Source: Candidatus Blackburnbacteria bacterium RIFCSPLOWO2_01_FULL_40_20 (GTDB lineage: Bacteria > Patescibacteriota > Microgenomatia > UBA8517 > UBA10165). From it: a stretch of 64,000 nt of DNA. The stretch covers positions 12,622 to 76,621 of the forward strand of contig MHCC01000001.1 in assembly GCA_001816475.1 (NCBI GenBank), in the 5' to 3' direction. The translations under genes were made by a program, and so were the position numbers. The notes beneath the pieces were generated by a model, which saw nothing but the letters and a program-made list of their open reading frames with translations, searched no databases and was not told where the DNA came from. Numbering within the stretch: position 1 is the first letter of the stretch; each line of letters starts with the position of its first letter. This document shows positions 3,776 through 7,560 of the stretch, one piece after another.

Positions 3776-3950
3776 CAACACTCAAAATGTAACTGGGAAC
3801 ATTGTGATTCCGTTAGATTAGCGAGAAACGGTTTTCGTAGATCTCGGGGTGATGATTTTCCCCACATCCAAATAAATTGAATCTGGAGTTTCCAACATCT
3901 CCTTAGAAAGGAGGTGATCCATCCGCACCTTCCAGTACGGATACCTTGTT

Positions 3951-4737
3951 CATGTTCTTCCCCTATTACTAAGGGCATGGACTATATCTTCATCCGCAGA
4001 AAAATGACCTTTTCCGGATGACTGGATCCTATTGTTTTTGCAAAGTCCAAATAAGATTTTGCTCTAACAAAAAATCTCCAATAATTCGGGTCTGCTTTTT
4101 TGCTCGGATTATGCACCACTCCACAGCTTATACCCAACTTTTCTAAATAGTTTCTTACCTGAACTAGATCCTCAAATTTCTTTTGAGCAAAGTACAAGTA
4201 ATAACGAACAGTTGGACTTCTTGAAATACCACCCTCTGTGTCAAAGTAGCCTCTTGTGTAATCAACCTTATCTTGCCTTGTTTTAACTTGAATTCCTTTA
4301 AGAAGTTTCTTGGAAAATTCCACAATCCAAAGATTGCGGTTTTTCCCTTCTTTGTAAATCCAAGCTTTAGATCCAAGACTGAGAATACCTTTTGCAAGAT
4401 ATTCGCAATAAGATCGACTTTTAGAAGCCACTCGATAAGTGGTTTTTCTTTCTGTGGAATCATGCAACGCTCCAAGTAAGTAAGCTTTAGTCATCTTGCG
4501 GCGTCAACGTGTAGTCTCTACGGGGTCAAGCCCTTCGATCCGCCTTTTGGCGGACTCAGGACCGACTTCCCTCGGTATTTTCCCTTTTGTGTAATACCTC
4601 TACTAGGTTGAATTTTAGCTCAACCAACTCAAGTAAGCAAAGCTTGCTTTATGCTTCGCTTCACTACGCAAAAGTAGGAGTTCACCGATACAGTTGAATT
4701 TATCTACACCATTACTAGTGTAGGTCGCAACAGATTC
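3951..4737 (-). other. 16S intron 2 (group I-like), inserted between AAGUCGU and AACAAGGUA (E. coli ~1498/1499)
   Basis: The upstream exon ends in U (CATCAAGTCGT). The intron ends in G (..ACATG) directly before AACAAGGTATCCG. It contains a LAGLIDADG ORF. Confidence 0.6.
3982..4494 (-). CDS. LAGLIDADG homing endonuclease (intron-encoded)
   Basis: Motifs LLGALHDS and GYFDTEGG (LAGLIDADG-type dodecapeptides) in a 170-aa ORF lying wholly inside the 16S intron. Confidence 0.8.
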   Translation of the reverse strand: MTKAYLLGALHDSTERKTTYRVASKSRSYCEYLAKGILSLGSKAWIYKEGKNRNLWIVEFSKKLLKGIQVKTRQDKVDYTRGYFDTEGGISRSPTVRYYLYFAQKKFEDLVQVRNYLEKLGISCGVVHNPSKKADPNYWRFFVRAKSYLDFAKTIGSSHPEKVIFLRMKI

Positions 4738-4809
4738 ACGACTTGATGCTAGTTGCTGAACTTACCTTTGGGTCGCCGAGGGCGACACTTCAGGTACTTC
4801 CAACTCCTC

Positions 4810-5316
4810 TCATCTGACGGGCGGATTGCGATCCAATAAGGTTTTGGTCGCGTTCCCACCCGGCGAGCGGATTTCCCGCACCGGGCGAGACCCAAGATTC
4901 ATCCTAGACTTCAATTGTAGAACGAGCTTCAATCCCCTCTTGTTGTTGTGCCTTTTATCTCTAACCAAAAGTGCGATCTTGCGAAAAATTTTATAATTTT
5001 CAACTTTTACACTTTGGAGATGATGAGCGTCAAAAAAGGGTATTAAAACTTTACGTATGTCCTCCTGAGAGTTAATCTCGTATCGATAACATTGGCTGTG
5101 ATTTCGACGCTTTTCCTTTTGGTGGTATACTGCGCCACATCCAAAGAATTCCTCAACTTTCTTGAGCAAAGACAGTTCATCTTCCCTCATTTTTATATAA
5201 AAGTGAGTCATCACACCATGTTTTGAACGAGAATAACGTTTATCAGGAGGTCGGATGCCAACATAAAAACATCCTTCTCCATCCGTTAATCCTACAATGT
5301 AGTCTGGTGAAAGCAT
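4810..5316 (-). CDS. LAGLIDADG homing endonuclease (intron-encoded; reading frame runs 15 nt into the downstream exon)
   Basis: N-terminal IVGLTDGEGCFYV is a classic LAGLIDADG motif. The ORF's last five codons (NPPVR) are read from the 16S exon CCGCCCGTCAGATGA. Confidence 0.85.
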   Translation of the reverse strand: MLSPDYIVGLTDGEGCFYVGIRPPDKRYSRSKHGVMTHFYIKMREDELSLLKKVEEFFGCGAVYHQKEKRRNHSQCYRYEINSQEDIRKVLIPFFDAHHLQSVKVENYKIFRKIALLVRDKRHNNKRGLKLVLQLKSRMNLGSRPVREIRSPGGNATKTLLDRNPPVR

Positions 5317-5692
5317 AGGTAACTCCCTTTATCACCGCTGCGTCAATAATTCCAGTATATTTCACCGAAATAAAATAATCAACAGCAGTAACTAATATGG
5401 AGTAGCTGACTTCTCTTAAGGCCTTAACCTTCATCCTTAAGAGATCTCCCTAGGTCACTATCGCTTCTGTTCCAAGCATCCAAGTTATGCCACTTCCCCA
5501 AAACACACCGCTTGGGTCGATTTGGCACCCCGATATCGATCGGAGCTTGGCTGCTTTTTGCCTCAGGCCCTCCAGCTGGTATCTCACGATAACCCAGCCT
5601 GCCAATTCTTTTTGGCTACTCCTCCTCATGTTTAGAGGAGGGAGTGGATTTAAACCACTTAGGAACAATAGCTGCTAGGCGCGCTTTAATTT
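4825..5692 (-). other. 16S intron 1, inserted between TTGTACACA and CCGCCCGTCA (E. coli ~1398/1399)
   Basis: Universally conserved 16S sequence resumes exactly on either side of the insertion. Intron type not established: the boundaries do not show the canonical U / omega-G pattern in my reading. Confidence 0.55.
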
Positions 5693-6254
5693 TGTGTACA
5701 AAGAGCGAGAACGTATTCACCGCGGTATAGCTGACCCGCGATTACTACCAATTCCGCGTTCATGCAGGCGAATTTCAGCCTGCAATCCCCACTGAGACGC
5801 CTTTTGATGAGATTAGCTCCGCCTCGCGGCTTGGCAACTCATTGTAGGCGCCATTGTAGCATGTTTGTAGCCCCAGACATAAGGGCCATGCTGACTTGAC
5901 GTCGTCCCCTCCTTCCTGTCCGATAAAATCGGACCTGTCCCGTATGAATATTTAACATACAGCAGGGGTTGCGCTCGTTACCTCACTTAAGAGAACACCC
6001 CACGGCACGAGCTGACGACAGCCATGCAACACCTGTCCTAACGCTCCGGTTTGCACCGGAGGGCTCTGACTTTCATCGGAGTTTCATTAGGATGTCAAGC
6101 CTGGGTAAGGTTCTTCGGTTCGTGTCGAATTAAACAACATGCTCCACTGGTTGTGCGCTCTCCCGTCAATTCCTTTGAGTTTTAGCCTTGCGGCCGTACT
6201 CCCCAGGCGGCTCGCTTAACGCGTTAGCTTGCGGAACAGATCTCGCAAAAAATA

Positions 6255-6440
6255 CAACGTATTTTTTGCTCAAAACCCAAAATACGAAATCCTAAATTCG
6301 AAACAATATCTAAATTCTAAATTCAAATAATTAAACGTTTTGAATTTTAGGATTTTTAGATTTTGAATTTGTTTCGTGCTTCGATATTCGTGCTTTGAAT
6401 TTCTCGCAAAGAATGTATTCTTTGCGAGACCTATCCCAAG
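6255..6440 (-). repeat. AT-rich ~185-nt expansion segment inside the 16S (E. coli ~840 region)
   Basis: Inserted between GTAAACTATG... and GCTAACGCGTTAAGC. Self-complementary halves (AAATCCTAAAATTCAAAACG ... CGAATTTAGGATTT) predict a long hairpin. Built from AAATTCAAAAT-like units similar to the intergenic GAAAATT iterons. Confidence 0.5.
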
Positions 6441-7560
6441 CGAGCATAGTTTACGGCTAGGACTACAGGGGTCTCTAATCCCTTTCGCTACCCTAGCTTT
6501 CGTCTCTCAGCGTCAGAATCTTTCTAGATGTTCGCCTTCGCCGTCGGTGTTCCTCGTAATATCAACGGATTTAACCCCTACACTACGAGTTCCAACATCC
6601 CCGAAAGATCTCAAAGTTCACCCGTATTCTCCGATATCCCAGAGTTAAGCTCTGGACTTTAACAGAAAACGTGGCGGACCGCCTACAGACTCTTTACGCC
6701 CAATAAATCCGGACAACGCTTGCACCCTCCGTATTACCGAGGCTTCTGGCACGGAGTTAGCAGGTGCTTATTCTACAACCTGTATGATTGTCAAAAGGAG
6801 TTTAAGACCCGAAGGCCTTCTTCCTCCACGCGGCGTCGCGGGATCAGACTTGCGTCCATTGTCCACGATTCCCAGTTGCTGCCACCCGTAGGTGTATGAG
6901 CCGTGTCTCAGTCTCATTCTGGGGGGCCGTGCTCTAACACCCCCTACCCGTTATAGCCTTGGTAGGCCGTTACCCCACCAACTAGCTGATAGGCCGCCGG
7001 CTCTTTCTTCGGTGGACCGTTAAGTCCTTTGCTCTTGCGAGATTATGCGGTATTACCCCCGCTTTCGCGGGGCTATCCCCCACCAAAGAGTAGATTCCGA
7101 CGTGTTACTCAGCCGTCTGCCGCTATCCCGACTTGCGTCGGAATCGCTCGACTTGCATGCTTAAAGCGCGCCGCTAGCGTTCGTCCTGGGCCAGGATCAA
7201 ACCCTCAAAAAAAATTGACATGATCAACTCCGATTTACATCGGAGCAACCATGGGTTCCCAGTTACATTTTGAATGTCAAAGAGCAAATTGCAACGCAAT
7301 TTACGATGCACCCACCGATAAATCTTGGCACGAGGCGTGTACGAATAGTACCCGCAAGCCGAGTGCGAAGATAAGGCGGGAAGGTACGCATGGTCTCTTT
7401 AAACCAAAAATCCACCACATGGCGGATTAAACAAGCTTTTTAGGCTTACTGGCTTACTCTTTTCCCATGTGTTTGAAAAGTATACTCGATTCCCTATCAA
7501 TAGTCAACCATCCGTTTAGTGTAAACACATATTTGCAAATACATATATAATAGTGTTGAA

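Follow-up and report, generated by a model that had tools for sequence, protein, structure and literature searches.

Two predicted self-splicing introns with LAGLIDADG endonuclease genes, and a copy of a dispersed palindrome, in the 16S rRNA gene of a Candidatus Blackburnbacteria genome

Introduction

Introns at two sites near the 3′ end of the 16S ribosomal RNA (rRNA) gene have been catalogued for the Candidate Phyla Radiation (CPR) in a survey of 380 CPR 16S genes (Tsurumaki et al. 2024, PMC11270868). Group-II-like insertions were found there only at 16S position 1400 (site 16IS9; 53 cases, 39 of them with LAGLIDADG open reading frames (ORFs), predominantly LAGLIDADG_1), and group I insertions with LAGLIDADG_2 or LAGLIDADG_3 proteins at position 1498 (site 16IS10). 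The same survey showed that I-ShaI, a related CPR enzyme of a 23S intron, is active. Here we analyse the 16S rRNA gene in a 64,000-nt stretch of DNA, called the window below, from Candidatus Blackburnbacteria bacterium RIFCSPLOWO2_01_FULL_40_20 (contig MHCC01000001.1, positions 12,622-76,621, assembly GCA_001816475.1). This gene holds a long insertion at each of the two sites and a third, shorter one in helix 26.

The group II type has close counterparts outside CPR. Liu et al. 2026 (PMC13190283) describe a bacterial family, rns-1396, in which an IIC-type backbone carries a single-motif endonuclease gene in domain IV; all members have a 5′ terminal linker and lack the second exon-binding site (EBS2), and they are reported only from Thiotrichaceae, with CPR unmentioned. 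According to that paper, the type was first found in Thiomargarita by Salman et al. 2012. In fungi, mitochondrial rRNA group II introns splice 1-33 nt upstream of their GUGYG motif, have neither EBS2 nor the branch-site motif, mostly encode LAGLIDADG proteins and are all called IIB1 (Zimmerly & Semper 2015, PMC4424553), and IIB1 introns with 5′-terminal insertions are attributed to Li et al. 2011 in the summary given there. A GUGYG motif displaced from the splice site is therefore on record for LAGLIDADG-encoding group II introns (PMC4424553, PMC13190283), the subclass of which is disputed between IIB1 (PMC4424553) and IIC (PMC13190283).

Our preferred account, to which we assign a probability of about 0.88, is that the window's 16S gene carries a group II intron and a group I intron, each with a LAGLIDADG ORF, together with a copy of a repeat in helix 26, and that all three lie in one precursor RNA that would mature by ribozyme splicing. 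An initial annotation of the window had proposed the two introns and their two endonucleases, and this is supported here by covarying ribozyme structures common to relatives inserted at the same sites. That annotation placed intron-bearing 16S genes among the known features of CPR, as the 2024 catalogue of both types and both sites bears out. Two introns in a CPR 16S gene are thus ordinary and already described. The helix 26 insertion of ~189 nt is absent from the initial annotation, and the dispersed palindromic element to which it belongs is the only part of the locus that may be new.

Results

A 16S rRNA gene in three exons

The window contains one bacterial small subunit (SSU) rRNA, which starts at 7212 on the minus strand and scores 1243 bits for its first exon (Rfam SSU_rRNA_bacteria). 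The collinear alignment halts at ...UUGUACACA / CUUUGUACACA (window 5693), beyond which Infernal reports a meaningless local end. The two downstream exons were recognised by direct reading, and the whole gene occupies 7212..3906 on the minus strand. It is 3307 nt long because of the three insertions that it carries. Its parts, and the inverted repeat around it, are as follows.

7212..5693, minus strand: exon 1, 1520 nt, E. coli ~1-1398, ends ...UUGUACACA; includes the helix 26 insertion
5692..4825, minus strand: insertion 1, 868 nt, between A1398 and C1399
4824..4738, minus strand: middle exon (exon 2), 87 nt, C1399 to U1498, CCGCCCGUCA / CCGCCCGUCAGAUGAG...CAUCAAGUCGU (ends AAGUCGU); helix 44
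4737..3951, minus strand: insertion 2, 787 nt, between U1498 and A1499
3950..~3906, minus strand: exon 3, ~45 nt, AACAAGGUAUCC...GGAUCACCUCCUUUC (= AACAAGGUAUCCGUACUGGAAGGUGCGGAUGGAUCACCUCCUUUC), A1499 to the 3′ end; helix 45 and anti-Shine-Dalgarno CCUCC
3778..3800, no strand: downstream arm of an inverted repeat, 23 nt, partner 7255..7277, from a repeat search
7255..7277, no strand: upstream arm of the same repeat, 23 nt, partner 3778..3800, from a repeat search

When the exons are joined on the minus-strand reading, the universal strings UUGUACACACCGCCCGUCA and AAGUCGUAACAAGGUA are restored, and exons 2 and 3 together supply the universal 3′ motifs CCGCCCGUCA, AAGUCGUAACAAGGUA and GGAUCACCUCCUU. 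The conserved motifs that flank the middle exon run on continuously into exons 1 and 3. Both insertion boundaries are fixed and cannot slide, because the flanking bases differ at each junction. We take the junctions to be E. coli A1398/C1399 and U1498/A1499, by reference to the 1392R/1406R primer site, to A1492/A1493 and to m3U1498. The insertion lengths, coordinates and junctions that had been proposed for the two introns prove exact on this reading, and the approximate numbering given for them (~1398/1399 and ~1498/1499) agrees with ours. The initial annotation had also put both the decoding-centre nucleotides C1400-A1408 and the anti-Shine-Dalgarno sequence on the middle exon. The first part stands, as the middle exon holds C1399-A1408 together with A1492/A1493, but CCUCC sits on the 45-nt exon 3.

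The locus is no assembly artefact. The protein encoded in insertion 1 (HE1, a LAGLIDADG homing endonuclease candidate) is recorded in identical form on at least 24 contigs, and we fetched six loci from independent assemblies (five ENA samples and a second NCBI metagenome-assembled genome (MAG), GCA_003505255.1). Three of them span the gene and reproduce the same 3.6-kb stretch at 99.9-100% identity; the other three, one of them from the second NCBI MAG, are shorter contigs that start within the gene and match at 99.0-100%. In all six, every exon-intron junction is present wherever contig coverage reaches. The possibility of a chimera, raised with the first description of the introns, is answered by this recurrence.

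The long-range inverted repeat (3778..3800 with 7255..7277) is 96% complementary, has its arms 3454 nt apart and encloses the whole 16S gene. It resembles a pre-16S processing stem, and since it brackets the gene in this way, the three exons and their insertions are probably transcribed as one precursor. Rfam models found no 23S or 5S rRNA gene in the 64-kb window, where the RNA matches are the 16S gene, four complete tRNAs and one tRNA clipped by the window edge; the rRNA genes are therefore unlinked. A promoter-like site lies upstream of the gene at 7507..7479 and, taken with the processing stem, makes the 16S gene look like a unit of its own.

Insertion 1 as a predicted group II intron

Among the loci fetched through HE1 homologues, 22 relatives carry an insertion at the identical site, GUACACA|...|CCGCCCGUCA, and with the window copy they form the set of 23 copies compared below. 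From this comparison we assign insertion 1 to the group II introns, as a predicted member of the bacterial rns-1396 / 16IS9 type. The assignment rests on a hand-derived structure, on covariation and on homology to the relatives, not on a curated model. The features that carry it are listed from 5′ to 3′.

5692..5685, minus strand: 5′ linker, 8 nt ahead of GCGCG; sequence and length vary across copies
5516..5497, minus strand: exon-binding hairpin, with exon-binding site 1 (EBS1) UGUGU at 5507..5503 against 5′ exon ACACA at 5697..5693, and GG at 5509..5508 against 3′ exon CC
5316..4810, minus strand: HE1 ORF, 168 aa, LAGLIDADG_1, in domain IV; Pfam E 3e-18, 67 bits against 23.1
4889..4855, minus strand: domain V, CUCGCCCGGU-GCGG-GAAAU-CCGC-[UC]-GCCGGGUGGG; 10-bp lower helix, 4-bp upper helix
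4851..4828, minus strand: domain VI, beginning three nt after domain V; bulged A at 4832; intron ends AU (4826..4825)

The 3′ end of the insertion gives the clearest picture. Domain V has a CGC triad (4887..4885) that includes a G·U wobble, and a 2-nt bulge, UC (4866..4865), on its 3′ strand. The wobble stands six pairs below the bulge, a spacing that matches canonical domain V geometry. The triad pairs are invariant in all 21 distinct rows of the alignment, and the lower-helix pairs between triad and bulge covary. In domain VI, all 6 pairs show compensatory changes, and neither the terminal U nor the bulged A (4832, eighth from the 3′ end) varies. Across the aligned same-site copies, 99.3% of cells in domains V and VI are paired and 11 of the 20 pairs are compensatory; none of 500 shuffled alignments did as well on four of five measures, and partners slid out of register paired in 37-40% of cells.

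The 5′ part agrees with this assignment. EBS1 is invariant in 23/23 copies, and the stem that presents it covaries (CCCAA/UUGGG, CCUAU/AUAGG, CCUCA/UGAGG). When the first 330 nt of all 23 copies are folded jointly with RNAalifold, domain I emerges as a multi-branched structure that two long-range helices close, and a hairpin domain, domain II, comes after it; compensatory changes occur in 46 of the 60 predicted pairs, and the IA, IC and ID branches are recovered. Domain III, the closing stem of domain IV and the tertiary contacts were not recovered in the 23-copy comparison. The GUGYG motif does not lie directly at the 5′ splice site: a linker of ~6-33 nt and of variable sequence intervenes in all 23 copies, and in two of them it forms a hairpin of its own. 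Five of 20 same-site relatives reach a curated group II model, RF01998 (group-II-D1D4-1), at 37-47 bits, where the gathering score is 35.

Three other readings of insertion 1 were tried and rejected. An archaeal bulge-helix-bulge intron was set aside since what looks like pairing of the intron ends is domain VI, a hairpin with covariation of its own. The loop GCGGUGUGU was also considered as a remote guide of group I type; only GGUGUGU is conserved in relatives, where it lies in a hairpin loop, and this fits a group II EBS1. Splice sites shifted so as to obey the U/G rule would alter the universally conserved ACACACCGCCC.

No 16S gene with an empty 1398 site occurs among the fetched loci, all of which were fetched through HE1 homologues. 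Same-site group II introns are also present in loci L002, L003, L004, L007, L015 and L077, whose records are labelled Nevskiaceae, uncultured Gammaproteobacteria or Omnitrophota. At least locus L015 is near-identical to Levybacteria loci despite its Gammaproteobacteria label, which suggests that mis-binning may lie behind some of the non-CPR labels. In a Microgenomates MAG (L001:~3100-3206), the same-site group II intron has a 41-nt insertion in the 3′ strand of domain V, beside the partner of the triad. These 41 nt may have inactivated the copy or may form an additional hairpin.

Insertion 2 as a predicted group I intron

Eleven of the loci fetched through HE1 have an insertion at the same 1498 site, and in eleven the site is empty. 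Ten of the insertions were aligned with that of the window, from which the middle of the P8 loop was removed, to give 11 copies. By its boundaries and its core, insertion 2 is a predicted group I intron, with the following elements.

4732..4729 and 4728..4724, minus strand: P10 strand UGUU, and guide sequence GCGAC
4723..4704; 4697..4693 with 4508..4504; 4688..4685 with 4575..4572, minus strand: P2; P3; P4
4516..4512 with 3984..3980; 4501..4497 with 3998..3994, minus strand: P7; P8
4494..3982, minus strand: HE2 ORF, 170 aa, LAGLIDADG_3, two matched stretches; Pfam E 2.5e-13, 50.5 bits against 22.5
3993..3985; 3975..3960; 3951, minus strand: J8/7; P9; terminal G

The exon end GUCGU pairs with the guide GCGAC to form P1, in which the U·G pair is present in 11/11 copies. 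Just upstream of the guide, UGUU pairs with the 3′ exon AACA (P10) in 10-11 of the 11 copies, and the terminal G of the intron is invariant in all of them. The window insertion contains the P7-J8/7 string GAUGAAGAUAUAGUCC. A hand-drawn structure of P1, P2, P3, P4 and P6-P10 leaves 97.9% of 481 cells paired, and 18 of its 44 pairs are compensatory. In P3, the long-range helix that forms the P3/P7 pseudoknot, 4 of 5 pairs are compensatory; P2, P8 and P9 also covary, and P7 is invariant. None of 500 shuffles was as good, and partners slid by 1-3 columns paired in 32-45% of cells. The earlier recognition of this insertion as group I, from an exon ending in U and an intron ending in G, is confirmed by the U·G pair, the terminal G and the covarying core. 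P5 in the window copy has a large extension.

Two of the fetched loci carry extra group I introns at more 5′ positions of the 16S gene (L006:1713-1971 and L025:1269-1551, Rfam 74-81 bits), which are absent from the window.

Two LAGLIDADG reading frames that end in ribozyme elements

The LAGLIDADG motifs that the initial annotation had read in both ORFs are borne out by the Pfam profiles. HE1 is preceded by AAGGGAG (5329..5323), 6 nt upstream of its ATG. It has one matched LAGLIDADG stretch, with the motif GLTDGEG and its acidic residue, and presumably acts as a homodimer. Among its 606 homologues, a protein from Candidatus Blackburnbacteria bacterium RIFCSPHIGHO2_01_F... matches it at 100% identity, which places the window in a CPR (Microgenomates) genome. 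Its nearest solved structures are I-OnuI, I-SmaMI and I-PanMI-type halves (E down to 3e-32).

The HE1 frame crosses domains V and VI and then continues 15 nt into exon 2, where it stops at TGA, as had been noted from the start. The conserved C-terminal peptide of the HE1 family, ...RPVREIRSPGGN / ...ARPVREIRSPGGNAK, is translated domain V, and the last ~30 residues of HE1 are dictated by the RNA of domains V and VI. In 20 of 22 relatives the stop codon lies within the intron, at a distance of 11-353 nt from the 3′ splice site that mostly places it in domains V-VI or close to them; in the other two no stop was located in the extracted sequence, and none of the 22 shows a stop in the exon. Read-through into the exon is thus demonstrable in the window copy only, among the 23. 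Where the nearest relative, L006, reads ACC AAA CCT TAA, the window reads ACC AAA ACC TTA TTG, and its frame misses the stop because of one extra A in the domain VI loop. From this comparison, the exon overlap is an accident of this copy and no design feature. Because of it, the ORF would lack a stop codon once the intron is excised.

HE2 fills the P8 loop, its start codon lying 3 nt past the 5′ strand of P8. Its last codons, LRMKI-stop, coincide with the P8 3′ strand, J8/7 and P7, and the stop is UAG at 3984..3982. The same C-terminal LRMKI is common to the ORFs of L003, L021, L028 and L065, because it is encoded by those three elements. The second LAGLIDADG motif of HE2, GYFDTEGG, is canonical and reads GYFD(T/A)EGG in relatives. 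A sequence search found no solved relative of HE2.

A copy of a dispersed palindrome in helix 26

The third insertion lies at the apex of helix 26.

~6429..6241, minus strand: insertion 3, ~189 nt, AT-rich, helix 26 apex
6429..6402; ~6402..6274; ~6273..6241, minus strand: hairpin A; palindromic core; hairpin B
6437..6424 paired with 6246..6233, minus strand: extended helix 26 stem, enclosing insertion 3

The stretch between the two strands of helix 26 measures 220 nt in the window. Of 25 related 16S genes that were matched, 24 have 38-45 nt in its place; the outlier, L070 with 349 nt, looks like a match mis-anchored upstream. The closest Blackburnbacteria relative has 38 nt there, with a GCAA loop and no insertion 3. 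Insertion 3 folds into a very stable extension of the helix (minimum free energy -76.5 kcal/mol, z = -8.3), and its arms read AAATTCGAAGCACGAATATCGAAA ... TTTCGGATTTCGGATTT.

In metagenome contigs, the 22-nt 5′ arm, AATTCRAAGCAYGAATATCGAA, recurs without mismatch at least 119 times (the palindrome copies are loci L076 and L081-L199). Among the matches listed, 105 copies are non-identical; they are imperfect palindromes that end ...TTTCGGATTTCGGATTT, are typically 100-180 nt long (median hairpin 130 nt) and have flanks unrelated to one another. Their sites include the helix 6 region and helix 26 of the 16S gene, several places in 23S genes and the P8 loop of a 23S group I intron. When 20 loci were sampled from those without an rRNA match near the copy, all 20 had no rRNA gene at all. 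Many dispersed copies, terminal inverted repeats and unrelated flanks are what is expected of a miniature inverted-repeat element, and all three are found. Target-site duplications were sought by eye in the flanks of the copies and none was consistent; in the window, a 9-nt repeat, TTTGCGAGA, flanks the core plus hairpin B and could be a duplication or not. A partner transposase was not identified, and no search for one was made. Literature searches with 17 nt of the arm and by topic returned no description of this palindrome.

Insertion 3 looks like a miniature mobile palindrome tolerated at helix tips. We put the chances at about even that it represents a mobile palindromic element, widely dispersed and so far undescribed, that lands in intergenic DNA, in 16S and 23S helix tips and in group I intron loops. 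Its main competitor is a lineage-specific expansion segment, grown in place and never transposed. Such a segment would suit the helix-tip position, where the insertion simply lengthens the helix as a very stable hairpin, and a Levybacteria 16S gene (L076) has a similarly built insertion at the same helix. We nevertheless regard it as unlikely: the same 22-nt arm recurs exactly at all those metagenome sites in copies that differ from each other, the copies have unrelated flanks, the sampled non-rRNA loci are free of rRNA genes, further copies sit in 23S sites and in the loop of a group I intron, and the insertion is missing from the nearest relative within Blackburnbacteria.

Several observations on the palindromes stand apart from this question. 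Copies sited in rRNA carry two additional short hairpins, such as CUUGUGC-GUA-GCACAAG ahead of the element and CUCGCGC-UGC-GCGCGAG after it, which gives a three-armed insertion (L076:930-1110 and 1770-1990; L087, L092, L095, L121, L134, L137); non-rRNA copies are without these hairpins. One metagenome contig holds a tandem array in which three 22-nt arms lie exactly 124 nt apart (L158:10248-10517), and another locus, L148, has a long run of the heptamer GGATTTC, of which the 3′ arm is made up. An ORF-less 1498 intron in a record labelled Omnitrophota (L007:3573-3887) has, around P6, a different AT-rich palindrome of ~170 nt, so that intron loops too are colonised by hairpin elements.

Weighing the splicing account

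Several results count against the view that both long insertions are removed by ribozyme splicing. To begin with, excision and ligation are inferred from the DNA sequence. In insertion 1 the GUGYG-like motif is GCGCG in the window copy, and its final C-G alone is invariant across the 23 copies; the domain V loop, GAAAU, is a pentaloop and not a GNRA loop; EBS2 and EBS3 were sought in this insertion and none was located. No Rfam group II model matches the window insertion 1 at E <= 10 (Intron_gpII, RF00029; group-II-D1D4-x, RF01998-RF02012), and narrow scans of 4790..4960 (domains V-VI) and 5370..5500 (the 3′ part of domain I, and domain II) give no group II match. HE1 in the window copy has no stop inside the intron. 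The first motif of HE2 and its relatives, LLGALHD(S/A/G)T (LLGALHDST in the window), has no acidic residue at the canonical position, so that the activity of HE2 is uncertain; the enzyme may have one degenerate active site.

The remaining such point concerns the group I model. The initial annotation had named group I models as a means of recognising the introns, and this holds in part for insertion 2: the window copy scores 29.8 bits with Rfam Intron_gpI (E 7e-5), under the gathering score of 50, and matches over its 3′ part only. The score is this low because the 513-nt ORF splits the core; ORF-less same-site relatives of 198-314 nt (L006, L007, L046) score 53.8-64.6 bits. For insertion 1 the group I scan fails, with no match at E <= 10, because that insertion is, on our assignment, a group II intron.

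One alternative treats both long insertions as intervening sequences that RNase III, or some other nuclease, would cut out with no religation, which would leave the 16S rRNA in three pieces. Bacterial 23S rRNA offers known examples of intervening sequences left unligated, and some CPR insertions are suspected to behave likewise (PMC11270868). We hold this to be quite improbable at the present locus. The insertions have kept complete, covarying ribozyme cores and exon-pairing guides, for whose persistence there would otherwise be no cause; both sites fall within the decoding centre, with universally conserved nucleotides on either side; and neither insertion has a long basal duplex that could serve as an RNase III substrate.

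It could also be supposed that insertion 1 is a divergent group I intron, as LAGLIDADG proteins are usually group I passengers and group I is the commonest kind of rRNA insertion in CPR (PMC11270868). The ends of the insertion speak otherwise: in 23/23 copies the last base is A for the 5′ exon and U for the intron (which closes with AAU or GAU), never U and G, which makes insertion 1 incompatible with group I. Besides the failed group I scan, no P1 helix can be drawn beside its 5′ splice site, its conserved 3′ end is a domain V/VI pair with a bulged A, and its relatives match a group II model. We consider a group I origin of insertion 1 extremely improbable.

An assembly chimera or a dead rRNA pseudogene, which a metagenome-assembled source, the proneness of rRNA regions to misassembly and several contigs that break within the gene might bring to mind, is hardly credible for a locus that recurs in the three spanning and three shorter assemblies, whose exons score as bacterial SSU rRNA with the universal motifs all intact, whose introns occupy exactly the same two sites in dozens of other genomes and whose processing stem brackets the gene.

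Discussion

Proposed processing and mobility

Under the splicing account, the precursor would fold, both ribozymes would excise themselves and the three exons would be ligated, the 87-nt middle exon, which makes up most of helix 44, being joined on both sides. In insertion 1, EBS1 and the adjacent GG would pair with exon sequence on the two sides, the final five bases of exon 1 and the initial two of exon 2, and so set both splice sites; domain V, with its CGC triad and 2-nt bulge, would supply catalysis, and domain VI would offer the bulged A. By analogy with the fungal introns, the first step is expected to be hydrolytic and to yield a linear intron, because the GUGYG-like motif does not adjoin the 5′ splice site but follows 8 nt of unconserved sequence. 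We favour this only somewhat over branching, which would still be possible because the bulged A is conserved. Insertion 2 would splice by the usual guanosine-initiated route, using P1 with its U·G pair, P10, the P3/P7 pseudoknot and the terminal G. Insertion 3 would either be kept as a helix extension or be trimmed out.

Each intron could spread through its own enzyme. HE1, as a homodimer, and HE2, as a compact monomer with two motifs, would cut intron-less 16S DNA at their own universally conserved sites (...CTTGTACACACCGCCCGTCA... or ...AAGTCGTAACAAGGTATCC...), and double-strand-break repair would then copy the intron into the break. Since the genome has a single rRNA gene, homing would need DNA from another cell. 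Both ORFs end in ribozyme core elements, and translation and ribozyme folding of one RNA are therefore probably mutually exclusive.

What the locus implies

If both assignments hold, two classes of self-splicing ribozyme, each with a LAGLIDADG gene of its own, share the decoding centre of one single-copy rRNA gene with 87 nt between them, and ribosome production would hinge on both of them working. The structural point that stands out is the bulged A of domain VI, which is invariant in the family despite the 5′ linker. The family also appears to reach well beyond Thiotrichaceae, to which the 2026 survey (PMC13190283) confined it. As for the third insertion, if it is a transposed hairpin, then at least some of the rRNA insertions that count as short and unclassified in CPR would be of this kind and would be neither introns nor home-grown expansion segments.

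The arrangement has practical consequences. The sites of the universal reverse primers, ~1392-1406 and ~1492-1513, are split by the introns, and the 515F site has two mismatches; the organism would therefore escape standard 16S amplicon surveys. Gene callers truncate such a 16S gene at position 1398, as Rfam does here. The 515F site itself (6731..6752, minus strand) reads GUGCCAGAAGCCUCGGUAAUAC, with 2 changes from the universal GUGCCAGCMGCCGCGGUAA, and the two changes are marked as a compensating base pair in the Rfam structure line.

Comparison with known systems

Insertion 3 can be set beside the RNase III-processed intervening sequences of bacterial 23S rRNA and beside miniature inverted-repeat elements such as Correia and ERIC. 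Like these, it is an AT-rich, imperfect palindrome of 100-190 nt at a helix tip with many dispersed copies. It differs in that neither a target-site duplication nor a transposase has been identified for it and in that its rRNA copies add two short hairpins.

HE1 is akin to the I-OnuI, I-SmaMI and I-CreI-type enzymes, which it matches at E 1e-21 to 3e-32 over residues 2-145 and with which it shares the acidic residue of GLTDGEG. It is, in contrast, a single-motif protein of 168 aa with a C-terminal part set by intron domains V-VI, and it is a predicted enzyme. Insertion 2 is like the 16IS10 introns in site, intron class and endonuclease family, and ORF-bearing and ORF-less relatives coexist in both. 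Nothing essential separates it from them; in the window copy the ORF fills the P8 loop and ends in P7, and P5 is largely extended.

Insertion 1 resembles the 16IS9 and rns-1396 introns in nearly every respect compared: the 16S host gene, the site ACACA|CCGCC (numbering aside), the absence of a reverse transcriptase, a compact domain I, a domain IV that holds a LAGLIDADG_1 ORF with one motif, a 5′ linker, and EBS1 without EBS2. The sites numbered '1396', '1398/1399' and '1400' appear to be identical, and the Thiomargarita introns are likened to insertion 1 by their description. Rfam detected the insertions of Tsurumaki et al., whereas no Rfam group II model detects the window copy. The rns-1396 family was confined to Thiotrichaceae, whereas the same-site introns gathered here come from CPR and from records with the unchecked labels Nevskiaceae, Gammaproteobacteria and Omnitrophota.

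The fungal IIB1 introns share with insertion 1 the splice site upstream of GUGYG, the loss of EBS2, a LAGLIDADG protein in place of the reverse transcriptase and an rRNA host gene. These fungal mitochondrial rRNA introns are reportedly also the subject of Toor and Zimmerly (2002). In them, the 5′ insertion is accompanied by loss of the bulged branch-point A. Insertion 1 differs in its bacterial host and its CGC catalytic triad, and the bulged A is retained in every one of the 22 copies aligned.

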